Shown in pieces: positions 5,602 to 21,867 of a stretch of DNA of 64,000 nt. The stretch is from Dehalococcoidia bacterium (GTDB taxonomy: Bacteria > Chloroflexota > Dehalococcoidia > Lucifugimonadales > JAGWBF01). The first letter of the stretch is position 1, and each line of letters starts with the position of its first letter. The notes under the pieces were generated by a model. The model did not search any database, had not been told where the DNA came from, and saw nothing but the letters and a program-made list of their open reading frames with translations. The stretch lies in NCBI GenBank assembly GCA_965247055.1, contig CBDFGE010000001.1:145956-209955 (forward strand), given 5' to 3'. Position numbers and translations under genes: made by a program.

Positions 5602-5853
5602 ATGTTCCAGGCCAGGATATATATAACCCTCAAGCCCACCGTTGGCGACCCCCAGGGACAGGCGGTCCTCGGAGGTCTCCGGTCGCTGGGCTTCGCCTCC
5701 GTGGATACCCTCAGGATGGGAAAGTACCTGGAGGTGAGGCTCTCGGAGGGAGAGCGCGGGCGGGCAGAGGCGCAGGTAAACGAGATGTGCCGTAAGCTGC
5801 TGGCCAATCCGGTGATCGAGGACTACCGGTTCGACCTGGAGGAGCTAGGCTAG
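5602..5853 (+). CDS. purS: phosphoribosylformylglycinamidine synthase subunit PurS
   Basis: 83 aa. The IYITLKPTVGDPQGQAV pattern is typical of PurS. RBS gagccgagag lies upstream. Confidence 0.9.
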   Translation: MFQARIYITLKPTVGDPQGQAVLGGLRSLGFASVDTLRMGKYLEVRLSEGERGRAEAQVNEMCRKLLANPVIEDYRFDLEELG

Positions 5854-6449
5854 TCCTGGATCGTGCCCTTGGTGCTGGGCACCTGCCCGGCGGCCCGGGG
5901 GTCTATCTCCGCCGCATATCGCAGTGCCTTGGCGAGGGCCTTGAACAGCGCCTCCGCCTTGTGATGAGAGTTCACCCCGCTCAGTATCCTCGCGTGCAGG
6001 GTGATGCGGGCCTCGGCCGCGAAACTCTCCAGGAAGTGCCCCAACAGGTCCCCCGGCAGGCTCTCCACCATCTCGTGGTCCAGGGAAAGATCGAGGGAAG
6101 CGTGGCTCCTCCCGCCCAGATCCACCACCACCAGGGCCAGGGTCTCATCCAGGGGCACGTAGGCGTGTCCCATCCTGTTGATTCCACGCCCCTCGCCCAG
6201 TGCCTCGCGGAAGGCCCTGCCCAGGGTTATCGCGGTATCCTCCACCATGTGGTGCCATCCGGTGGACAGGTCTCCCTCAGCCCTTAATGTTATGTCAATG
6301 AGACCGTGCCTCGACAGCTGCGCCAGCAGGTGGTCCAGCATCCCATTCCCCGTGACGATGTCGTAGCGGCCCTGCCCGTCCAGATTAAGGGAGAGGGAGA
6401 TGCTGGTCTCCCCGGTGCGGCGGTCAACGCTGGCCTGCCGTGGCTCCAA
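5850..6449 (-). CDS. hisB: imidazoleglycerol-phosphate dehydratase (monofunctional, no phosphatase domain)
   Basis: 199 aa. RTGETSISLSLNLDG...GMLDHLL...HHMVED...HHKAEALFKA metal-binding motifs. Confidence 0.95.
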   Translation of the reverse strand: MEPRQASVDRRTGETSISLSLNLDGQGRYDIVTGNGMLDHLLAQLSRHGLIDITLRAEGDLSTGWHHMVEDTAITLGRAFREALGEGRGINRMGHAYVPLDETLALVVVDLGGRSHASLDLSLDHEMVESLPGDLLGHFLESFAAEARITLHARILSGVNSHHKAEALFKALAKALRYAAEIDPRAAGQVPSTKGTIQD

Positions 6450-6500: not shown

Positions 6501-7610
6501 TCAGCAAAGGTCCCTCATGACCCAGCCCAGCGCCGGGATCACGGCATCGGTCTCGTGGGGCAACCCCACACTGGCCCGCAGGTAGTCCTTCATTCGAGGC
6601 CCGGACAGCTGACGGAAGAATATTCCCTGCTGGGCGAGGCCCTCGAAGACGGCACCCGCCTTCCCCTCGGGAAACTGGCAGAGGATGAAGTTCGCTCGGG
6701 AGGGCCAGGGAGTTACCCCGGGGATCTCCGCAAGCAGCGAGATCATTCGCTCCCGCTCAGCGACTATGGCGTTCACCCGTTCGATCAGGCCCTCTCGGTC
6801 CTCCAGGGACGCCAGGAGGGCTATTTCAGCCGCCAGGCTCACGTTGTAGGGCGGTTTCACGCTCATCATCACCCTGGCGACGTCCGGGTGCATCACTCCC
6901 AGCCCCATGCGCAGCCCGGCGAGCCCGGCCCATTTGCTGAAGGTGCGGAGGACTATGAGGTTGGGGTACTCCCTCACCAGAGGCAGCACCGTCTCGCTTG
7001 CGAACTCGTGGTAGGTCTCATCCACTACCACCAGTATGCCCATCTCCAGCAGTCGCCGCACCTGCCACTCAGGGGTGATGTTCCCGGTGGGATTATTGGG
7101 TGAGGCGAAAAGCATGGCCTTGGTATGGGAGTCCAGCGCCAGCTCCGTCGCTTCCGTGTCTATGGCAAAGGCCTCGTCCCGGGGCACCTCCACCACCTCT
7201 CCCCCGCAGATGTGCGCGGCGACAGCGTACATACCGAAGGTGGGAGTGGGGTCTATAATCTTCTCTCCGGGGGCCAGGAAGATACGCAGGGTCAGGTCTA
7301 TGATCTCGTCGCTGCCGTTTCCGGCGACGATGTGCTCAGGGCCGATGCCCAGGTACTCCGACAGGGCCCCCCGTAGCCGCCTCTGTTCCGGGTCAGGATA
7401 CAGGTTGTAGGACTTGAAGCCGGCAAGGGCCTCGGCCACCTTAGGGGAAGACCCGAAGGGGTTCTCGTTGCCGTTGAGCCTTATGACCTTCTCCGGGGGA
7501 ATCCCAGCCTTCTCCGCCAGGACCTCCGTGGGGTCCACGCCGTGGTACATGTCGAGGCGGCGAATGTGGGGCTGGATGAGGTCCAGCACATCACCTTCCG
7601 AAAGTTTCAT
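6501..7610 (-). CDS. hisC: histidinol-phosphate aminotransferase
   Basis: 369 aa class-II aminotransferase. LNGNENPFG, NPNNPTG-like SPNNPTGN, and FSKWAGLAGLRMG carrying the PLP lysine. The start overlaps the hisD stop. Confidence 0.93.
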   Translation of the reverse strand: MKLSEGDVLDLIQPHIRRLDMYHGVDPTEVLAEKAGIPPEKVIRLNGNENPFGSSPKVAEALAGFKSYNLYPDPEQRRLRGALSEYLGIGPEHIVAGNGSDEIIDLTLRIFLAPGEKIIDPTPTFGMYAVAAHICGGEVVEVPRDEAFAIDTEATELALDSHTKAMLFASPNNPTGNITPEWQVRRLLEMGILVVVDETYHEFASETVLPLVREYPNLIVLRTFSKWAGLAGLRMGLGVMHPDVARVMMSVKPPYNVSLAAEIALLASLEDREGLIERVNAIVAERERMISLLAEIPGVTPWPSRANFILCQFPEGKAGAVFEGLAQQGIFFRQLSGPRMKDYLRASVGLPHETDAVIPALGWVMRDLC

Positions 7611-8977
7611 ATCTGCTTAACCTCGTGGGGGGCTCCGCCGCCTGCCCGCCTCAGTCCGTCCAGCCGGACCTCCACGGCCCGGGCGTGTCCCGTGAGCCCC
7701 TCGGCTCTCGCGATCACGGCGGCCGCCTCACCCAACTCGCCATACTCCTCGGGCCTCAGCCCCACCACCGGCATAGTCCTCAGGAAATGGTGGACACTCA
7801 GGGCGGAGCTGAACCGGGCCGTGCCCCCGGTGGGCATTACGTGGCTGGGCCCGGCCACGTAATCTCCCATCACCTCGGGGGAGTAGGGGCCCAGGAACAG
7901 ACCACCGGCATGCTTAACCATGCCCGCCCAGCGCCACGGGTCCTGGACCATCATGCACAGGTGCTCGGGTGCGATGGAGTTCGCCAGCTCTATCGCCTCC
8001 TCGACGCTGCCCACCAGGACAACCTTGCCCTGCCTCTCCAGTGACACGCCGGCAAGGTCACCCCGCTCCAGCGAGGCCAGCTGTCTCGCCAGCTCTTCCT
8101 CCACCTCCTCCACCAGAGATGGGGAGGTGGTGACCAGAATGGCCGATGCCATGGGGTCGTGCTCGGCCTGGGCAAGCAGGTCGGCGGCACAGTAGGCGGC
8201 TTTGGCGGTCTCGTCCGCGATCACCACCGTCTCGGTGGGCCCGTACAGGCCATCGATGTCCACCTGGCCATAGACCAGCTTCTTTGCCAGGGTTACGAAC
8301 ACGTTGCCAGGCCCGCAGATCTTGTCCACCTTGGGCACGGTCTCAGTGCCGAAGGCCATCGCCGCAATGGCCTGCACCCCCCCGACCCGGAACACTCGGT
8401 CCACCCCGGCCAGGCGCGCCGCCGCGAGGACGGCAGGCGCCGGTAACTCCCCACCCCGGGGAGGAGACGCCAGGACCACCTCTCTGACCCCCGCGACCCT
8501 GGCGGGGACCGCCGTCATCAGCACCGTGGATGGGTAGGAGGCGCTGCCGCCCGGTGCGTAGATGCCCACCCGCTCCAGGGGTAACACCAGCTCGCCCAGC
8601 CCGGTCGAGAGATCCACCCAGCTCTGGCGCATCGTCTTCCTGTGATATTCCTCGATGCGCCTGGCCGCGAGCTCCAGGGCCTTCACCAGCTGCTCCGGCA
8701 CCTCCCGGCAGGCCTCGTCGATCTGCGCGGCTGAGACCTCCAGCTCCTCCAGCTCCACGCCATCCAGGAGACGGGCGTAATGCCTGACGGCACCGTCGCC
8801 CCTTCGTCTCACATCCTCGAGGATGCGCTCCACCGACTCGCCGGGCGACAGCCGCTCCCCGAACACCTCGACGGTCTTGTCCATCATCTCAGGGGGGATG
8901 GAACTCAGGTCCAGGACATCCGCGCGGGTAAGCGCTTTCCTGGCCTCCTCCAGACCCTTAATCAGCTTCAGGTGCAC
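7607..8977 (-). CDS. hisD: histidinol dehydrogenase
   Basis: 456 aa. GIYAPGGSASYPSTVLM, AQAEHDP and GDYVAGPSHVMPTGGTARF motifs. Confidence 0.95.
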   Translation of the reverse strand: MHLKLIKGLEEARKALTRADVLDLSSIPPEMMDKTVEVFGERLSPGESVERILEDVRRRGDGAVRHYARLLDGVELEELEVSAAQIDEACREVPEQLVKALELAARRIEEYHRKTMRQSWVDLSTGLGELVLPLERVGIYAPGGSASYPSTVLMTAVPARVAGVREVVLASPPRGGELPAPAVLAAARLAGVDRVFRVGGVQAIAAMAFGTETVPKVDKICGPGNVFVTLAKKLVYGQVDIDGLYGPTETVVIADETAKAAYCAADLLAQAEHDPMASAILVTTSPSLVEEVEEELARQLASLERGDLAGVSLERQGKVVLVGSVEEAIELANSIAPEHLCMMVQDPWRWAGMVKHAGGLFLGPYSPEVMGDYVAGPSHVMPTGGTARFSSALSVHHFLRTMPVVGLRPEEYGELGEAAAVIARAEGLTGHARAVEVRLDGLRRAGGGAPHEVKQI

Positions 8978-9719
8978 CCAGATACCCCTTTATCAACCGT
9001 GCAGATTCCTCTACGACCCTCTCCTGATACTCGGCGATCTTATGTCTAGGTATCTCGCCGTACACTCCTCCGAGGCTGTCCGGGACACAGCGGAGGAACT
9101 CATCGACTATCTCCGCGGCGCCGGAGTCATCACTGTACATCCGGCGCGCCATGAAGCGTAGCCGCTCCCACGTCAGGTCCCAGGTGTTGAATTTCGACAC
9201 CCACTCCCGCCACTCGGTAAGGGTCTCGGGGCTGATGAACCCCACCTCTATCCCCTGCTCCGAGCCCTCCAACGAGGCCCTTATCTGCTCAAAATCACCC
9301 AGCCACTCCCTGGCCGCCATGTCCATGTCCAGCTGCAGTGCCCTGTCCCATATATTCGCCCGCACCTGGTCGCCAGGGCGGTGCCCGTTGAAATATGGGC
9401 GGTATATCTCCACGATCCAGGTCTCGTCCGCAACCAGGTGGGTGAAATACCCGGAGAGGAAAGCCCTGGTAGCGTCGTCGATCCGTGACGAGTCGGCAAG
9501 GTGAGGATGGGCATTAAGCAGGCCCTCCACACCGGCGCCGACATGGTCTACCGCCAGCGGGGCGAAGTGGGTCTGGTCCCTCTTCCATTTGGTGATTATT
9601 CTAATGTCGGGCGACGTTGACCCAAGGAGGAAGGAGCCTAGATGCCCCTCGACCACGGGGTGGGCGAGGCGAGAGGAGGTCCGCCATGCCAGGCACAAAT
9701 GGGTTGGCAGGTTGGGCAC
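8958..9719 (-). CDS. zinc-dependent phospholipase C-like / metal-dependent hydrolase family protein, function unknown
   Basis: 253 aa. N-terminal PTHLCLA, then LLGSTSPD...THF and GYFTHLVADE His/Asp-rich motifs resemble the Zn_dep_PLPC-type fold. The GTG start is 1 nt after the hisG stop, and the gene overlaps the hisD start by 20 nt. Confidence 0.5.
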   Translation of the reverse strand: MPNLPTHLCLAWRTSSRLAHPVVEGHLGSFLLGSTSPDIRIITKWKRDQTHFAPLAVDHVGAGVEGLLNAHPHLADSSRIDDATRAFLSGYFTHLVADETWIVEIYRPYFNGHRPGDQVRANIWDRALQLDMDMAAREWLGDFEQIRASLEGSEQGIEVGFISPETLTEWREWVSKFNTWDLTWERLRFMARRMYSDDSGAAEIVDEFLRCVPDSLGGVYGEIPRHKIAEYQERVVEESARLIKGYLGAPEAD

Positions 9720-9720
9720 G

Positions 9721-10842
9721 TCAAACCTTCTCCAGGAATTCCAGCAGCCTCTGGTAGGCCTGGCAGCGGTCTTTGAAGAGGTAGCCCACTTGGGAGGAGG
9801 AGATGTCCAGACCTCCGGCTCGACGAAGGTGCTCCACGGCGTCCAGCAGCTTATCTTTGGCCACCACCAGACTCACTGCATACCAGTCGTCCTCGGAGTT
9901 GCCGTACACCCGGGAGATAGTGGGCCCCTGGAGCCCCGCCAGATCGGGTCTGGTGAGGAGGTTGGCGGCCACCATCTCGGGCGATGAGCCTCGCACGTTG
10001 GCGGTGAGGCGGTAGAACGACCCCGCCCGCAGATTGGCCTCCATCAGCTCCAGCATGGCCCGGGCCAGCTCCAGGCCCTGGGAAGAGTCTCGAAGCAGCC
10101 GGCGGTTGCCTATCAGGCAAGCCTGGGATACCAGGATGGTCCCGTCCTCCACCGTCTTGAGTCTGTTCTCCCGGAGGGTGACTCCGCTGGCGGAGAGATC
10201 GGCGATGACGTCGGCGTAGCCGGCCACGGGCGCTGCCTCCAGGGTGCCGCTAGCCTGCACTAGGGTGAAGTGGTGAATCCCCCTGCCATATAGGAACTCC
10301 CCCAGCAGCCGGGGGTACTTGGTAGCGATGCGCAGCTGCTTCCCCTCCTGCCGGAACTCAGCCGCCAGGTCTGCCAGGTCGTCCAGTGAGGACATGTCTA
10401 GCCACGAGTCTGGGATTGCCAGCACAAGCTCGCAATGGCCGAAGCCGAGGTCTTCGATGATGGGAACCACCGGGCTCCCCTCACGCCGGGACTCCAGGAA
10501 CCGGTCAAGTCCGGTAATCCCGAGCTCGGCGCTCCCCTCCTCTACCTTAGAGGTGACGTCGGCGGTGCGTTGAAACAGCACGGTAGCCCCTGGCAAAGTG
10601 GGGATACGGGCGGTGTAGCGGCGGCTGCTGGGCCGGTTCACCGTGATGCCACAGCGGCCCAAGAAGGCCAGCGAAGGCTCGTACAGGTCGCCATCGCTGG
10701 GCAGGACCAGCCGCAGATTCCCCTCCTTCTCTGCCGCCGTGCCCCCGGTCCGGGCTGCCCTGGGCTGCGGGCCCTCGAAGGACACGCCATTCCCGCTGAG
10801 CCCTCCCAAGCCGGCCGCGAATCTGGACGAAGGGTACGTCAT
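9721..10842 (-). CDS. hisG: ATP phosphoribosyltransferase, long form with C-terminal regulatory domain
   Basis: LRLVLPSDGDLYEPSLAFL start region. The C-terminal HisG_C-like segment contains LAGLQGPTISRV. The ~40 aa N-terminal extension may be an artefact: an internal aaggagggg sequence precedes LRLVLPS. Confidence 0.88.
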   Translation of the reverse strand: MTYPSSRFAAGLGGLSGNGVSFEGPQPRAARTGGTAAEKEGNLRLVLPSDGDLYEPSLAFLGRCGITVNRPSSRRYTARIPTLPGATVLFQRTADVTSKVEEGSAELGITGLDRFLESRREGSPVVPIIEDLGFGHCELVLAIPDSWLDMSSLDDLADLAAEFRQEGKQLRIATKYPRLLGEFLYGRGIHHFTLVQASGTLEAAPVAGYADVIADLSASGVTLRENRLKTVEDGTILVSQACLIGNRRLLRDSSQGLELARAMLELMEANLRAGSFYRLTANVRGSSPEMVAANLLTRPDLAGLQGPTISRVYGNSEDDWYAVSLVVAKDKLLDAVEHLRRAGGLDISSSQVGYLFKDRCQAYQRLLEFLEKV

Positions 10843-10852
10843 CGGCGGGCCG

Positions 10853-12322
10853 TTACCTTTCTCTCCGGCTGCCTGAAGGAGCCGCCTGGATCAGGTGACT
10901 GCTGCGCTGCCCATCGGCTTCCACCGTGATTACCTCTGAGATGTTCCTGGCCCGCGCGTACGATAGACTCTCTTCCACGCTCATGCCGCAGACTTCCACC
11001 TCCGCCACCATCCCTTTTTCACGGAGCTCGCCTGCCAGACGCAGCGCCTCTCGGTAAGCTTCGTCACTGGAGGCGGACACCAGAACGGAGCCACCGGCAC
11101 CGTCCAGTCCCCGCTGATTTCCCTGCGCGTCGAGGACCTCCACTATGTGCTCAAGCGTGTAGGCAAAGCCGAGGGCAGGCGTGTTGGAGGGGCCTCCCAA
11201 TGCCCTGGCCAGGCTGTCGTACCTGCCGCCGCCCCCGAGGGAGTGCTCAAGGGACGGGTGGACGATCTCGAACACCGTGCCCGTGTAATAGGCCAAGCCC
11301 CTGGCCAGGCCGAAGTCCAGTACCACAGCCGCACCGTCGGTCTGGGTCAGGTCCAGAATGGCCATCGTTTCCCTCAGCCTATCGAGGACCGAGGTGTCCA
11401 TGCCGGAGGATTCGATGACCTTTCCCGCCTCCGCAAGGGCGGCACCGGGCTCGCCCGCCACGCCGGCCAGATTGTAAGCCATCTCCAGTCCCCTTCTCAG
11501 CCTGTCCGGTTCATCCGTACCTTTGAGCTTGCGAAGCAGGCGCTCCACTACCTGCGAGGGCTGACGCTGGCCCAGCGATCCGACCTCTGCCCACTGGAGC
11601 AGCCCGTGCAGCAGCTCCCGGGACTCCTCCTCCTCCATCCCTCCCAGGGCCACGCTGAGGTAGCTGTGCCGGGGATCGGAGGCCAGCAGCCGAATCTGTA
11701 CCGCTTTCTCCAGCGCCGCGTCCAAGGCACCCTCGCCGGCCTTCAACCCAGTCACGCTACCCAGGATGAACTCCACCGCCCGCTCGGAAAGGGAAAGGGG
11801 CCCCAGAAGCCGGTACAGCACCCCTACGTCCCCTATCGCCAGCTGGTGACCGGTGAGCCCCAGGCCCGACAGCGCCGTGCAGCTCAGGGAGAGGATCTCC
11901 GCATCGGCCCTCGGACCGGCGACGCCCAGGACCTCGGCTCCCATCTGGGTGAACTGGCGGTAGGCTGTAGCATCCTTTTCGTAACGAAAGACCGGGCCCG
12001 CGTACTGGACACGTAACGGCAGCGCCGTCGCCGTCAGACCCTCTTCGAGGAAGTGCCTGATTATTGAGGCGGTATACTCCGGGCGCAGGCTCACGTGGTT
12101 GCCACCGGGATCGGAGAAGGAGTACATCCGTGTGGCTAGCTCACCCCCGGACTTGCGCAGGAACAGCTCCGTGGGCTCGAGCACCGGCGTTTCGAGAACC
12201 TGGTAACCGTAGGAGGAGAAGGTCTCCCTCAACTGGTCGGTGGCGGCCTTCAACGGCCGCCAGGTCGCGGGGGTAAGGTCACGAGTTCCATGGAGGTGCC
12301 GGAGCTTTTCCATATATCCCAA
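10853..12322 (-). CDS. histidyl-tRNA synthetase-like protein (HisS, or a HisZ-type regulatory paralog)
   Basis: 489 aa class-II aaRS. HGTRDLTP, FRYEK..AYRQFTQMGAEVLG, LARGLAYYTG and GGGGRYDSL are present. A C-terminal anticodon-binding-like domain is present. Motif 2 is partly degenerate (see findings). Confidence 0.8.
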   Translation of the reverse strand: MGYMEKLRHLHGTRDLTPATWRPLKAATDQLRETFSSYGYQVLETPVLEPTELFLRKSGGELATRMYSFSDPGGNHVSLRPEYTASIIRHFLEEGLTATALPLRVQYAGPVFRYEKDATAYRQFTQMGAEVLGVAGPRADAEILSLSCTALSGLGLTGHQLAIGDVGVLYRLLGPLSLSERAVEFILGSVTGLKAGEGALDAALEKAVQIRLLASDPRHSYLSVALGGMEEEESRELLHGLLQWAEVGSLGQRQPSQVVERLLRKLKGTDEPDRLRRGLEMAYNLAGVAGEPGAALAEAGKVIESSGMDTSVLDRLRETMAILDLTQTDGAAVVLDFGLARGLAYYTGTVFEIVHPSLEHSLGGGGRYDSLARALGGPSNTPALGFAYTLEHIVEVLDAQGNQRGLDGAGGSVLVSASSDEAYREALRLAGELREKGMVAEVEVCGMSVEESLSYARARNISEVITVEADGQRSSHLIQAAPSGSRRER

Positions 12323-12676
12323 CGGGGGTATTGTACACCAAAAGGCGACGCGTAGGAAATAGAAGACGCCGTCACGGATGGGCCATCAGGCCTCCGTCCA
12401 CGTAGACGGCATGGCCGGTGGTGTAGTCGCAGGCGTCGGATGCTAGATAGACCAGGAGGGGAGCGATGTCCCGGGGGTGCCCCTTCCGCCGGAGGGGGAT
12501 GTAGCGGACCAGAAGCTCCTTCTGGGCCTCTTCGGGGGGCAACTCCTCGGCGCTGAACCAGCCGATGCCGATGGCGTTTACCCGTATGTTTTGCCTTCCC
12601 CACTCCAGGGCCAGGGCTCGGGTAAGCTGAAGCACGGCTCCCTGGCTGGCGCAGAATGCCGCCGAGTTCCACAGGG

Positions 12677-14348
12677 ATGTTGTAGGTCTACAATTTTGTC
12701 AGTAGGTAACTGTTCAGGGAAAATGTCAGTTTATGGAAGGACTGACATTGAGTACGAAAGAGCAGAACCGGTTACATATCTTGAACGGAGTATTAGAGCG
12801 GCACTGGACGATGAAGGAGGCGGCCCCGCTGCTTGGAGTAAATGAACGTCAGGGATGGCGAGTGCTGGCGGCCTATCGTAAGGAAGGGGCCAGAGGAGTG
12901 GTGCATAAGAACCGGGGCCGGGTGCCACCCAACGCGACTCCAGAGACCATCCAGCAGCAGGTGGCGAGCCTGGCCCAAGAACGCTACGAGGGGATCAACC
13001 ATACCCATCTGACCGAGTTGCTGGCCGAGCGGGAAGGGGTGATGTTATCCAGGCCCACGCTAAGGCGAATTCTGGTACGGGCCGGATTGACCAGCCCCCG
13101 CCACCGCCGGCCACCACAACATCGGTGTCGCCGACAACGGATGCCTCAGGAGGGGATGCTGCTCCAATTGGACGGGAGCCACCACCTCTGGCTGGAGGAC
13201 CGGGGGCCCTGGCTAACGCTGCTGCTGGCGGTGGACGACGCTACCGGGACGGCACCCTATGCACTATTCCAGGAACAGGAGGATACCCGAGGCTACCTGT
13301 CCCTGCTCCAGGGCATCATTGAACGTCGGGGGGTGCCGATGGCGGTGTACACCGATGGGCATGCCGTCTTTCAGCCACGGCGTCGTCCATCGGACCTATC
13401 CCAGGTTCCCGGGAAAGGACCATCAACCCAATGGAGCCGGGCCCTGGGAGAACTGGGGATCACCCAGATATTGGCCCACAGTCCCGAGGCCAAAGGAAGG
13501 GTGGAGCGAGCCAACGGCACCTTCCAGGACAGGCTGGTGGCGGAACTTCGTCTGGCTGGCGCTTGCACCCTGGCGGAGGCGAATCAAGTGCTGGCCAAGT
13601 TTCTGCCTCGGTTCAACCAGCGCTTCGGGGTGCCTGCGGACCAGGCGGAGTCGGCCTACCGGCCAGTGAACCCGGAGTTGGACCTGGGTGGCGTGCTGTG
13701 CATCAAGGAGTTGCGCAGAGTGGCCAAAGACGACACGGTGCAATACCACGGGCGGGCTTTGCAACTCTTTCCCAGTCTGGAGCGCCCCAGCTATGCCGGG
13801 GCCCGAGTAGAGGTGCAGGAACGTCTGGATGGTCGTCTGCTGGTGCGGCATCGGGAGCAGATTCTGACTCCCCAAGAAGCGCCGGCGCTAGCTACTGAAC
13901 TCCGGGCTCGGGTGACGGCCGGTCCGGTGACAGCGATTCTTCCCGACCCGGATCCGACGGACTGGAGGCCCAAGCAACGTATCAGAGCCCCGGTGCTTCT
14001 AGGACCCCTGGCTGGCGAGACCATCTGGTATGAGGACGCCGCAAGGAAGCAGGTCCACCGGGACCTGGTGGTGGCCGGGATGGAGCGGGCGCGGCAGCAG
14101 GGCAAGCGCATCGGCCGGCCCTCGGTGAATGAACGCCCGAGTTTGAGCAGCGATTCGCCGCGGTGGTGCAGCGCATCGGATCGGGAGAGCTTTCCAGAAA
14201 TCAAGCTGCCAGAGAACTGGGCATCGGCTATGCCACCCTCAAGCGCCTCCTCCAGGCCTGGGAACAGCCCAACGCCAAGCCATCTATTTCACTTTCGGTG
14301 AAACCAAGCAGCGGTAAGGACTACTGACATTTTCGGTGAACAACGACA
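12677..14348 (+). mobile_element. insertion sequence, ISNCY-like (HTH + DDE/integrase-core transposase), about 1.67 kb
   Basis: Flanked by the direct repeat ACAGGG (12671..12676 and 14349..14354). The terminal inverted repeats are imperfect, about 28 bp, and share TGT...TGTCAGTAG. It sits inside an SDR-like ORF. Confidence 0.75.
12733..14301 (+). CDS. IS transposase (ISNCY-family-like) with an N-terminal HTH; the C-terminal tail is probably frameshifted
   Basis: LSTKEQNRLHILNGVLERHWTMKEAAPLLGVNERQGWRVLAAYRKEGARGVVHKNRGR is the typical N-terminus of this transposase class. A DDE-type core follows (LLQLDGSHH...VDDATG...YTDGH). Confidence 0.8.
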   Translation: MEGLTLSTKEQNRLHILNGVLERHWTMKEAAPLLGVNERQGWRVLAAYRKEGARGVVHKNRGRVPPNATPETIQQQVASLAQERYEGINHTHLTELLAEREGVMLSRPTLRRILVRAGLTSPRHRRPPQHRCRRQRMPQEGMLLQLDGSHHLWLEDRGPWLTLLLAVDDATGTAPYALFQEQEDTRGYLSLLQGIIERRGVPMAVYTDGHAVFQPRRRPSDLSQVPGKGPSTQWSRALGELGITQILAHSPEAKGRVERANGTFQDRLVAELRLAGACTLAEANQVLAKFLPRFNQRFGVPADQAESAYRPVNPELDLGGVLCIKELRRVAKDDTVQYHGRALQLFPSLERPSYAGARVEVQERLDGRLLVRHREQILTPQEAPALATELRARVTAGPVTAILPDPDPTDWRPKQRIRAPVLLGPLAGETIWYEDAARKQVHRDLVVAGMERARQQGKRIGRPSVNERPSLSSDSPRWCSASDRESFPEIKLPENWASAMPPSSASSRPGNSPTPSHLFHFR

Positions 14349-14858
14349 ACAGGGCCCTTTCCGCCAGGCCGGATATTATGTTAATGATCCGTCCCCGTCC
14401 CCCCAGAACCATCCGCCTTCCCACCGCCCGGCACGTCACGTAGACGGTCGTCACGTTCCGCCGCATCACGGCCTCGAACTCGCCGAGAGTGACCTGGTCG
14501 AAGGGTCTGGCGAACTCCGTGCGAAAATCGTTCACCAGTACATCCAACCGGCCCCATCGGGAGATGACGTCGTCCAGGGCCGCCTCCACGTCACCCTCTA
14601 TGGAGGCATCACAAACGCTACCGAAGGCCTGACCTCCCAGCTTCCCTACCCTCTCCACCACCTCCTTCATGAGCTCGCGCCGCGCCGCCATGACGTAGAC
14701 GCTGGCGCCGGCCTCGGCCAGCACCTCAGCCAGATAGGGGGTAAACTCGTTGCCCTCTCCGGCCAGGACAGCCACTTTGTCGGTCAGCCTGTACTCTTCC
14801 AGGAGGGGCATCCTCGTCTCCTCGCTAACGGCGGTGCTCGACCACGGCACGGCCGGGA

Positions 14859-17589: not shown

Positions 17590-18273
17590 CTAGTGCTCGC
17601 GGAAGCTCGCCTCTGTGGTCTCCTCCAGGCGCAACGGGGCGAACTCCCCGTGGAGCAGAGCCTCCACCAGGTCCTGCTCGCTGCGAATGGCCCCCGGGAA
17701 GGATGTCAGGCATGCCCCGATGGAGCTAACCAGATGGGCATCGCTGCCGGCGATCCCCATGTAGCCCCGGTTCGCCGCCAACTCCATCCCCCTTTCGTTC
17801 TCCCCCCTGCGGCTGCCCCCGTTTAGGGTCTCCACGATGCTAAGGCCGGGAAACTCCACGCCCCTGTCCATGAACTCGCAGAGCCCGATGCCGGCCCTGC
17901 CTGGATGGGCCGGCACAGCGATGGCGCCGCGCCGCGCCGCCTCTTCTACAAGCTGGAACGAGTCGATGGCCACGTCGGAGAAGTCAACGGAGCCGAGCAG
18001 TCCGTCGCTGACACCGTACACCAGGAAGTGGCCGTGCAGCGTGTCCAGCTCAGACCCCTTCAGCACCAGCACCCCGTACTGTCGTGCCAAGCCCGAATAG
18101 TCGATAGCCTTGTCGAACTTGCGGTGCTCCGTGAGAACGATGCCATCGATGGAATAGCCACGCTTTCTGAGCACCTGTATCCACTTCAAGTACTGCTCGA
18201 CCGTCGCTCGGGAGTCGTCCGAGGAGACGGAGTGGCTGTGCATGTCTATCAGGGTCCGGCCCGTTTCGAGCAC
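17590..18273 (-). CDS. PHP-domain metal-dependent phosphoesterase
   Basis: IDMHSHSVSSDD at the N-terminus, with GIAGSDAH and VPAHPGR His motifs of the PHP fold. The exact start is uncertain (GTG 18273 or ATG 18243). Confidence 0.75.
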   Translation of the reverse strand: MLETGRTLIDMHSHSVSSDDSRATVEQYLKWIQVLRKRGYSIDGIVLTEHRKFDKAIDYSGLARQYGVLVLKGSELDTLHGHFLVYGVSDGLLGSVDFSDVAIDSFQLVEEAARRGAIAVPAHPGRAGIGLCEFMDRGVEFPGLSIVETLNGGSRRGENERGMELAANRGYMGIAGSDAHLVSSIGACLTSFPGAIRSEQDLVEALLHGEFAPLRLEETTEASFREH

Positions 18274-18359: not shown

Positions 18360-18795
18360 TCGGGGAGTGAGGCAGGCCTGTAAGCCGGGTTCTGTGTCCC
18401 CATGGTCGAAGCATCGACGCCCGTAGGCGCGATCACCCGCCCTTTGGGAGCGGTGACCATCTCTCTAGGCCCGCCGTTGCCGACGGACTCAAGCGGCCAA
18501 CCCGGGGACGGGCCAGGCACCCATAGTCCCCCTATTTGGCCTTGCTCCAGGTGGGGTTTAGCCACCGCCGTGTCACCACGGCCGGCCGGACGCTCTTACC
18601 GTCCGTTTTCAACCTTACCGCGCCGGCCCGAAGGCCGCCGTGGCGGTGTGGTTTCTGTGCCACTTTCCGTCCCCCGGATGATGTATCCCACCATCCGGGG
18701 GCCTGGGCGTTACCCAGCACCCTGCCCGGTGGAGCCCGGACTTTCCTCTCCCCCGACCTTGCGGGGCAGCGGTCACCCGGCCTGCCCTATCCCAA
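18360..18795 (-). ncRNA. rnpB: RNase P RNA, bacterial type A
   Basis: On the minus strand the universal P4 strands are both present: GAGGAAAGUCCGGGCUCC (reverse complement of 18731..18748) and ACAGAACCCGGCUUAC (reverse complement of 18380..18395). P1 pairs GGCAGGCC with GGCCUGCC at the two ends. No convincing CDS lies in this 570-nt gap. Confidence 0.88.
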
Positions 18796-19656: not shown

Positions 19657-21867
19657 ATGATAAAATCTGTCTGGAGTCGCCTGGCGAGGGGCAAATTGTT
19701 GCTTCGGATACTTAACACCCTGACCAAAAGGGTTGAAGAGGTCTCTACCCTGGAGCCGGGGGTCGCGCGGATGTACACCTGTGGCCCCACCGTATACAGG
19801 TATGCCCATATCGGGAACCTGCGCACATACCTCATGGCCGACTGGCTCAGAAGGGTGCTGGAATGCGGCGGCTACGAGGTGGTCCACGTCAAGAACATCA
19901 CCGACGTAGGCCACATGCGTATGGAGATGCTGGAGTCCGGCGGCGACAAGGTGGTCACCGCTGCCCTCGCGGAGGGCAAGACACCCCAGGAGATCGCACA
20001 GTACTACACCAGCGCCTTTCACCGCGATGAAGAAAGGCTCAATATTCTTCCGGCCCACCATCACCCCCGGGCCACCGGACACATACACGAAATGATCGCG
20101 ATGATTGAGCGGCTTTTCGAGAAGGGCTACGCGTACCAGTCTGGAGGCAACGTTTACTTCGACGTTAGCAAGTTTGCCGACTACGGCAAGCTGTCCGGCA
20201 ACCTCCAGCAGGGCCTAATGGAGGGGGTACGGGCGGAGGTGGACCCCCTCAAGAGAAGCCCACGGGACTTCACCCTCTGGAAAGCGGCGGAACCTGGCCG
20301 CGACATGAAGTGGGACAGCCCATGGGGAGAAGGATTCCCGGGGTGGCACATCGAGTGCTCCGCTATGTCCACCAGGTACATGGGGGAGCAGCTGGACATA
20401 CACACCGGCGGAGTGGACAACATCTTCCCCCATCACGAAGATGAGATAGCCCAGAGCGAGGCGGCCTTCGGCAAACCCTTCGTTCGCTACTGGCTCCACG
20501 GCCAGCACCTTCTGGCCGATGGGGTCAAAATGGCGAAGTCCGCCAGAAACGAGTTCATTCTGGCCGACCTGGAACAGCGGGGGTTCGACCCCCTGTCATT
20601 CCGGTATCTTTGCCTCACCACAAGGTACCGGCACAGGATGAACTTCACCTTTTTGGCCCTGCGAGCCGCCGAGACGGCCCTCACCAGCCTGCGGGACCGG
20701 GTGTGGGAGTGGCGGAACGCACCCGCTATCGACGAGCTTCCGGAGGAGTCCCACGGGTGGCAGGAGCGATTTACCGAAGCCGTGCACGCAGACCTTGATA
20801 TGCCCAGGGCCCTCGCCATTACCTGGGATATGGTCCGCTCTCCCATCCCCGGCAGGGCCAAACTTCAGCTGCTCCTGGGATTCGACCGCATCCTCGGGCT
20901 GGGACTGGACAGGGTTTCAGACCGTTACGAGTTACCCCACCATATCCAGTCCAGCATCGGCGAGAGGGAAGAGCTCCGGGCCCGAGCGCAGTACGAGAGG
21001 GCGGATGGGATGCGGTCCGCCATATCGGCCAGCGGCTACCTGGTCGGGGACACCTGTCAAAGCACCAGGGTCCGCCCCAAGACGGAGCTGGAGAAACGGC
21101 AGGACCGCTGGCAGGAGGTATCCTCCTCCAGGGAAGTGGAATCGCACCTGGACCTGCCTCCAGAGCTGGACTTCTCCGTGGTCGTGACGGCCAGCAACTA
21201 CCTGGACGACGTGGTGCGCTGCACCGAGACCGCCTTGAAGTGGGCCGGGGGGCATTCCACCGAGCTGATAGTGGTGGACAATGGCTCCAGCGACGGCACA
21301 TCGGAATGGCTGGAGGCGCTACACGAAAGGGACCCCAGAGCCAGGGTCATCCACTGCGACCACATCCTCGGCGAGGCGGCGGCAAGGAATATCGGCCTCA
21401 AACAGAGCCTGGGCCGGACCGTGTTAATACTTGATACCTCGGTGGAGGTGGCGGGAGATGTGCTCGGGCCTATCGGGCGCTGGCTTGAAGACGACACCGT
21501 GGGTATCATCGGCCCCTGGGGGCTCAGGACCACCGACCTCCGCCACTTCCACGAGGAGGTCGGGGATGGGGACGCGGACGCCATCCAGGCGTACTGTATG
21601 GCCTTTCGTCGTGCCCACATCAAGCAGGTAGGGCTGATGAGAGAGACGTTCCGCTTCTATCGCAACCTCGACCTCGACTACAGCTTCCAGTTCAAGGCCC
21701 AAGGATACCGAACGGTGGCCGACGGCACCCTGCCGTTAAGCCGCCACGAACACCGGCAGTGGGCTGCTCTCGGTGAGGCCGAGCGGGACCAGCTAAGCGC
21801 GAAGAACTTCAAGCGTTTCCTTAAGACGTGGGGCGACAGGGCCGACTTGCTCTTATCCAGGACGTAG
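19657..21867 (+). CDS. cysS: cysteine--tRNA ligase-type enzyme fused to a C-terminal GT2 glycosyltransferase domain
   Basis: The CysRS motifs are MYTCGPTVYRYAHIGN, PGWHIECS, FPHHEDEIAQSEA and KMAKS, plus a C-terminal helical region. From about nt 21170 the GT-A motifs are FSVVVTASNY, VVDNGSSDGT and LILDTSVEV. The real start may be TTG 19696/19699, which would give (L)LRILNTLTK. Confidence 0.85.
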   Translation: MIKSVWSRLARGKLLLRILNTLTKRVEEVSTLEPGVARMYTCGPTVYRYAHIGNLRTYLMADWLRRVLECGGYEVVHVKNITDVGHMRMEMLESGGDKVVTAALAEGKTPQEIAQYYTSAFHRDEERLNILPAHHHPRATGHIHEMIAMIERLFEKGYAYQSGGNVYFDVSKFADYGKLSGNLQQGLMEGVRAEVDPLKRSPRDFTLWKAAEPGRDMKWDSPWGEGFPGWHIECSAMSTRYMGEQLDIHTGGVDNIFPHHEDEIAQSEAAFGKPFVRYWLHGQHLLADGVKMAKSARNEFILADLEQRGFDPLSFRYLCLTTRYRHRMNFTFLALRAAETALTSLRDRVWEWRNAPAIDELPEESHGWQERFTEAVHADLDMPRALAITWDMVRSPIPGRAKLQLLLGFDRILGLGLDRVSDRYELPHHIQSSIGEREELRARAQYERADGMRSAISASGYLVGDTCQSTRVRPKTELEKRQDRWQEVSSSREVESHLDLPPELDFSVVVTASNYLDDVVRCTETALKWAGGHSTELIVVDNGSSDGTSEWLEALHERDPRARVIHCDHILGEAAARNIGLKQSLGRTVLILDTSVEVAGDVLGPIGRWLEDDTVGIIGPWGLRTTDLRHFHEEVGDGDADAIQAYCMAFRRAHIKQVGLMRETFRFYRNLDLDYSFQFKAQGYRTVADGTLPLSRHEHRQWAALGEAERDQLSAKNFKRFLKTWGDRADLLLSRT

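Follow-up and report, generated by a model that had tools for sequence, protein, structure and literature searches.

L-histidinol-phosphate phosphatase (HolPase) activity in histidine biosynthesis is provided by members of three known superfamilies, HAD, PHP and IMPase (PMC10804674, PMC5516325). The step has been reinvented repeatedly, often by enzymes encoded within his clusters (the HAD types HisB-N, paHisN and toHisN/nmHisN), and about 32% of histidine producers have no annotated HolPase (PMC10804674). The IMPase-type HisN (TIGR02067) is the stand-alone HolPase of several bacterial phyla (PMC5516325). Here we describe an uncharacterised gene, referred to as X, that lies inside the his operon of a Dehalococcoidia bacterium (assembly GCA_965247055.1). 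The window analysed is a 64,000-nucleotide (nt) stretch of contig CBDFGE010000001.1 (positions 145,956-209,955), and coordinates given for it are window-based. Gene X (8958..9719, minus strand) starts with GTG and encodes a protein of 253 amino acids, a candidate metallo-phosphoesterase resembling Zn-dependent phospholipase C (PLC). X is very probably tied to histidine synthesis, and the best single hypothesis for its function, held tentatively, is that it encodes a HolPase.

Gene X is the third member of a tight six-gene operon on the minus strand, recognised from open reading frames (ORFs) and domain matches, in the order hisZ-like, hisG, X, hisD, hisC and hisB. The TGA stop of hisG (9721..10842, minus strand) occupies positions 9721-9723 and the X start codon positions 9717-9719, so that, as read from the sequence, one base separates them; at its other end X, which extends to 8958, overlaps hisD (histidinol dehydrogenase; 7607..8977, minus strand) by 20 nt. 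The start assignment of X is supported because the N-terminal sequence MPNLPTH is invariant in the family. An earlier note on this DNA had given the same operon order and, for X, the same coordinates, gap and overlap, and it had also described the last gene, hisB (imidazoleglycerol-phosphate dehydratase, IGPD; 5850..6449, minus strand), as monofunctional. The 199-residue HisB indeed consists of the IGPD domain only (PF00475 at residues 33-176; NF002111 at 236 bits, cut-off 231) and has no phosphatase domain. The comparative sample consisted of 151 Dehalococcoidia genomes with a completeness of 90% or more; 147 of them have IGPD, in every case monofunctional.

The earlier note proposed looking for X inside the his operons of related genomes, and there it recurs. 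Ninety-three loci were compared: 80 species loci and 13 more drawn from 11 additional families. Of the species loci, 77 have X flanked by hisG and hisD, usually in the order hisZ-hisG-X-hisD-hisC-hisB, and the remaining three have it directly before hisD, with the hisG side undetected or at a contig end. All 13 loci from the further families have X directly before hisD, at identities down to 28%, and tblastn detected hisG upstream in nine of them. Overall, X is directly upstream of hisD in 93/93 loci, followed there by a HisD 47-77% identical to that of the window, and hisG was found upstream in 86/93; hisG was undetected in L105, L113, L114 and L121, and L027, L074 and L153 have a contig end or no hisG found. 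Across the 93 loci, the gap between the hisG stop and the X start has a median of 4 nt, and between the X stop and the first HisD residue in the alignment the median is -11 nt, that is, an overlap. In family f8, where hisC and hisB are separated from the rest by about 20 kb, hisG, X and hisD are still together. Genomes without X contain the same hisZ-G-D-C-B operon with hisG abutting hisD; X was therefore inserted into an already stable operon, and the many syntenic loci do not equal many independent events. Two apparent fusions were discarded: a HisG_C-X protein (P0174) comes from a long-read contig ridden with frameshifts, and a 1134-residue open frame in genome G127 is a high-GC artefact. 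No genuine fusion of X to HisD or HisG was found.

The X family is compact: its metal site is invariant, its gene is fixed beside hisG and hisD, and structure searches detected no relative of it in the PDB. X has 870 detectable homologues of about 250 residues, almost all of them unnamed, and about 550 clusters at 50% identity were counted in a set of 1.84 billion representative proteins. At least 237 species genomes encode X; of the 80 that were listed, all carry titles naming Dehalococcoidia, the SAR202 cluster or Chloroflexota except one called merely 'uncultured bacterium'. In the comparative sample X is present in 88/151 genomes, with a nearly all-or-none distribution by family, and is in effect a single-copy gene, as both additional matches are fragments. 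Outside Dehalococcoidia only weak relatives of the N-terminal part were found, covering the first ~100 residues in f68 and ~175 in f72; these proteins, from other Chloroflexota classes, were set aside as independent support because no his genes lie near them.

The only Pfam family matched by diverse members of the X family (24 of 26; E≤0.01, best E 1.2e-9) is PF00882 (Zn_dep_PLPC). The window protein scores 25.7 bits against this model, under the gathering score of 26.8 and over residues 14-100 only, and some of its relatives exceed that score (for example, 27.1 and 28.8 bits); no NCBIfam model matched X. Among X proteins linked to his genes, P2, H7, D38, R47, H51, H94, D98, D125, Q129 and W170 are conserved, and when paralogues away from his genes are added the invariant set is H7, D38, R47, H51, G90, H94 and D98. 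The Met-Pro N-terminus is likewise invariant in the family. A DRALQxxxD motif is restricted to the his-linked subfamily and places its residues at i, i+4 and i+8 of a predicted helix (115-140), whereas the C-terminal half, with conserved F161, L167 and W170, has no similarity to known domains.

The nine zinc ligands of Bacillus cereus PLC are the N-terminal residue, H14, D55, H69, H118, D122, H128, H142 and E146. The first six of these are paralleled in X by a fixed N-terminus and by the order and spacing of its H...D...H...HxxxD residues, a pattern that resembles the ligand set of PLC and nuclease P1; five PLC-type ligands have invariant counterparts (H7, D38, H51, H94 and D98). The His/His/Glu triad of the third zinc (H128, H142 and E146) has no clear counterpart in X; D125, Q129 and D133, on one helix face, may replace it. 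To judge from these residues, X is very probably an active metallo-phosphoesterase, with a putative centre of two or three metals. It differs from PLC in several ways: the similarity is limited to the first ~100 residues, the C-terminal 150 residues being unrelated; X would be cytosolic and begins with Met-Pro, whereas PLC begins with a cleaved Trp1; and its context is histidine biosynthesis rather than the lipid or nucleic-acid cleavage of PLC and nuclease P1.

The genome of this bacterium contains no recognisable HisN, HisK or HisB-N in the assembly, these three being the HolPase types that the screen covered. The best match to the HisK model (TIGR01856) is 26.5 bits, below its cut-off. There are three IMPase paralogues, with scores of 112-160 bits where the HisN cut-off is 275, and they carry a SuhB-like 'GS' in place of HisN motif 5, which was defined as aromatic-G-D-aromatic by Kulis-Horn et al. 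2017 (PMC5516325). The sole TIGR01656 domain belongs to a GmhB-type phosphatase of the HAD-IIIA class, fused to a sugar-1-phosphate nucleotidyltransferase and adjoined by an epimerase in a sugar cluster. The earlier note had concluded that the phosphatase step was not covered within the operon, and the rest of the assembly likewise shows no recognisable HisN, HisK or HisB-N; however, with a completeness of 91% the assembly is without hisH, hisA, hisF and hisIE, a missing cluster that in close relatives includes an HAD-IA gene. The only hisF- and hisH-like genes present are WbuZ/WbuY-type paralogues in a sugar-biosynthesis cluster (contig C4, 298.9-301.7 kb). The same note named a PHP protein of the window (17590..18273) as a competing candidate. 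Its PHP and PHP_C domains are real, with the best models being CehA/McbA (56 of 80 bits) and PHP_C, but it has no match to TIGR01856, for which the weak matches were on contig C5, and its orthologues are never near his genes.

The HolPase reading is favoured because dephosphorylation of L-histidinol phosphate is the one step of the pathway to which no enzyme is assigned here and because the predicted chemistry of X fits it. As a candidate for a non-orthologous HolPase, the role that the earlier note had given it, X has a fixed synteny, a conserved putative metal site and no recognisable rival in this genome; what is missing is complementarity with HisN and HisK. In the mechanism that we propose, X would be a cytosolic metal-dependent phosphoesterase dedicated to histidine biosynthesis, with L-histidinol phosphate as its likeliest substrate. 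It would be co-translated with hisG and hisD and would pass histidinol to HisD. The metal centre would consist of the N-terminal Pro, exposed by removal of Met, together with H7, D38, H51, H94 and D98, binding two or three metals, and the D125-R126-Q129-D133 helix face may supply determinants of substrate binding or of a third metal. More broadly, X could found a fourth, PLC-like superfamily of HolPases. It would then complete histidine synthesis in most Dehalococcoidia, marine SAR202 among them, and some lineages would retain it as a metal-alternative isozyme next to a HisN or HisK that depends on Mg; this is a plausible conjecture to which we give somewhat less than even credence.

Such an enzyme would share its reaction with the PHP-type HisK/HisJ (TIGR01856), and the PHP HolPases have a multinuclear metal centre ligated by His and Asp, of a kind also found in PLC and nuclease P1. 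X and the PHP proteins are unrelated in sequence, and their folds would differ: the PHP proteins are distorted TIM barrels, and the prediction for X is all-alpha. HisN has an unrelated fold and depends on Mg; families f16, f21 and f31 have it together with X, without replacement, and in f31 it is found near his genes. The HAD-type HolPases differ in having a Rossmann-like HAD fold and an Asp nucleophile. A search of the available literature library returned no paper linking PF00882-like proteins to histidine biosynthesis, describing a PLC-like HolPase or giving the X family a function.

Remote paralogues of X at loci L123-L125, L129, L157 and L127 are translationally coupled either to NAD-dependent epimerases, on three unrelated contigs, or to a flavin mononucleotide-dependent dehydrogenase. 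Three remote paralogues head clusters with a short-chain dehydrogenase/reductase (SDR) epimerase and glycosyltransferases, and one paralogue follows a GHMP kinase. These contexts hint, by analogy, at small-molecule phosphoesterases that often feed alcohol-oxidising enzymes, as HolPase feeds HisD, and so speak weakly for a phosphatase role of X.

Results on fold, co-occurrence and a second his-linked hydrolase weigh against X being the HolPase. The AlphaFold2 model of full-length X is all-alpha (mean predicted local distance difference test score, pLDDT, 91.5), as are the members of the Zn-dependent PLC/nuclease P1 superfamily (PF00882), and a model of residues 1-150, also all-alpha, reached a pLDDT of 89.6; both models are confident. 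Foldseek searches of the PDB returned nothing significant for the full-length model (best E=0.39, template-modeling score, TM, about 0.15) or for residues 1-150 (best E=3.3). TM did not exceed 0.3 for the matches of either model, and neither PLC nor nuclease P1, nor any other phosphatase, was listed among them; sequence-profile searches of the PDB with X were empty. What points to a PLC-like fold is therefore the set of sequence motifs: the His/Asp motifs described in the earlier note stand, and X has its borderline PF00882 match, but the fold itself found no Foldseek match.

Co-occurrence with the canonical enzymes was counted over the 151 genomes, with a threshold of E≤1e-55 for HisN-like proteins. 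Among the 88 genomes with X, 27 have a HisN-like protein, 10 a HisK-like protein and 37 either one, compared with 9, 2 and 11, respectively, of the 63 genomes without X. X is thus positively associated with HisN/HisK (odds ratio 3.4, uncorrected for phylogeny); non-orthologous displacement would predict the opposite sign. The earlier note had listed a canonical phosphatase elsewhere, combined with a loss of synteny in relatives, as evidence that would count against its candidate; canonical phosphatases do coexist with X (HisN-like in 27/88, HisK-like in 10/88), and synteny holds. X and HisN occur together in 8/8 genomes of each of the families f16, f21 and f31, and HisK-like genes occur beside X in genomes of f26 and f43. 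In f31 the X operon is followed, on its own strand and 0.6-1.8 kb downstream of hisB, by a hisN gene (231 bits, motif 5 RAPGDFWGF). In bearers of HisN or HisK, X shows no sign of decay, has every ligand in place and has diverged no more than in lineages free of HisN. Pseudogenisation of X in such genomes, flagged by in-frame TGA codons, was rejected, as these were terminal stops and the four genes checked were all intact.

The distribution also has a side that favours a HolPase, since 51/88 X-bearing genomes lack both HisN and HisK, but 52 genomes without X lack both enzymes too and have the same hisZ-G-D-C-B operon. Therefore, at least one further phosphatase must exist in the class whatever X does. 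Downstream of hisB in operons without X, no convincing phosphatase ORF was found, the candidates there not having been compared with family libraries. Losses of X within families are split: they fit redundancy in f18 and f26 and do not in f25 and f30.

The second his-embedded hydrolase is an HAD-IA protein, encoded between hisF and hisIE in five complete relatives (L093-L097; for example, L095:691-1404). A related HAD gene lies directly beside hisI or hisIE in f2, f3, f4 and f8 (L138-L145; hisF side unmapped), in X-bearing and X-less genomes alike. Its motif I, FDx[Y/F]xTL, has no Asp+2, the general acid in HAD phosphatases, and is similar to that of haloacid dehalogenases. On this motif the his-linked HAD is not convincing as a HolPase and appears to be a second unexplained enzyme linked to the pathway. 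The idea that it is a DxD phosphatase only where X is absent was rejected, because the motif is Dx[Y/F] in 13/13 copies, from eight X-bearing and five X-less genomes. Separately, a DxD-type HAD gene in f31 overlaps the end of a monofunctional hisI (L146:4124-4819).

The stable coexistence of intact X with genuine HisN or HisK would be readily explained if X were a phosphoesterase of the histidine pathway with another job, with L-histidinol phosphate left to HisN, HisK or another enzyme. X might then act as a HisE-like phosphoribosyl-ATP pyrophosphohydrolase (PRA-PH) on the product of HisG, or hydrolyse a side product or damaged intermediate. Its coupling to hisG (median 4 nt) is as tight as that to hisD, and sites of the PLC/P1 type act on diesters and on anhydride-like bonds no less readily than on monoesters. 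HisE itself is scarce: a strong PRA-PH domain (PF01503) is present in just 47/151 genomes, always fused to HisI, and the other 104 have a monofunctional HisI and no obvious HisE. Fifty-seven X bearers are among the genomes without a strong HisE, and a canonical HolPase occurs together with HisE in only 2/88 X-bearing genomes, compared with 8/63 X-less ones, a rarity that is suggestive and confounded by phylogeny. Against this, X stands beside a fused HisIE in 31 genomes, including those of f4, f8, f19 and f28 and 5/5 complete relatives, and 47 X-less genomes are also without a strong HisE, so X is not complementary to HisE. Moreover, we know of no concrete side reaction that needs such an enzyme. 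Another job within the pathway is a possibility that we consider rather unlikely. X as a replacement for HisI/HisE, both absent from the window's assembly, was rejected in view of the fused HisIE in 5/5 complete relatives; the hisH-A-F-IE cluster is simply missing from this assembly.

If X is a HolPase, it represents a fourth solution to this step; if it has another job, the textbook pathway contains an unrecognised extra reaction. In either case, metabolic reconstructions would gain for the abundant uncultured Chloroflexota of marine and subsurface habitats.

It is improbable that X is a non-catalytic or accessory partner, for example a regulatory or metal-handling subunit for the Zn-dependent HisD or for HisG, held at a fixed ratio by translational coupling. 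Such a partner would account for reading frames that overlap both neighbours across the class, for a conserved C-terminal half (F161, L167 and W170) that resembles no known domain, and for a distribution of X that is independent of the catalytic HolPase present. However, the enzyme-like ligand set is invariant even in paralogues far from his genes, genomes without X operate the same operon, and a true fusion to HisD or HisG has not turned up. Least probable of all, and in our view very unlikely, is that X is a general phosphoesterase acting on lipids, sugar phosphates or nucleotides that was inserted once in a very stable operon and inherited with no role in histidine synthesis: the conservation of hisZ-G-D-C-B with or without X, implying few independent events, and the remote paralogues in glycan or cell-envelope clusters would fit this, but X is effectively single-copy and directly upstream of hisD in every locus examined, remains next to hisG and hisD even after relocation of hisC and hisB, and carries a subfamily-specific motif.

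The other genes of the window operon are hisC and the hisZ-like gene. The hisC gene (histidinol-phosphate aminotransferase; 6501..7610, minus strand) was called as an ORF, and its position is kept in relatives. The hisZ-like gene at the head of the operon (10853..12322, minus strand) encodes a 489-residue paralogue of histidyl-tRNA synthetase (HisRS) that scores just under the TIGR00442 and TIGR00443 cut-offs and retains the C-terminal domain. It stands beside a long-form hisG (ATP phosphoribosyltransferase; PF01634 and PF08029, the HisG_C regulatory domain; TIGR00070, 167.7 bits), the pair spanning 9721-12322, whereas HisZ normally partners short-form HisG. A second HisRS-like gene is located on contig C2 of the same assembly, at about 170.3-171.4 kb. 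A long HisG also occurs in families f19 and f28, with no hisZ match within ~6 kb upstream. In genome G043 (family f37), a 471-residue ORF between hisZ and hisD (L108:12485-13900) contains two tandem HisG domains, seen as two PF01634 stretches.

Elsewhere in the window, a short-chain dehydrogenase gene (12372-14850) is apparently split by an IS481-like transposase gene (12733..14301, plus strand) into an N-terminal part (14284..14850; adh_short 1-140) and a C-terminal part (12372..12635; adh_short_C2 151-235). A bacterial class A RNase P RNA was detected at 18365-18788 on the minus strand (253 bits). At 19657-21867 a 736-residue protein combines a cysteinyl-tRNA synthetase catalytic domain (334 bits) with a C-terminal family-2 glycosyltransferase domain.

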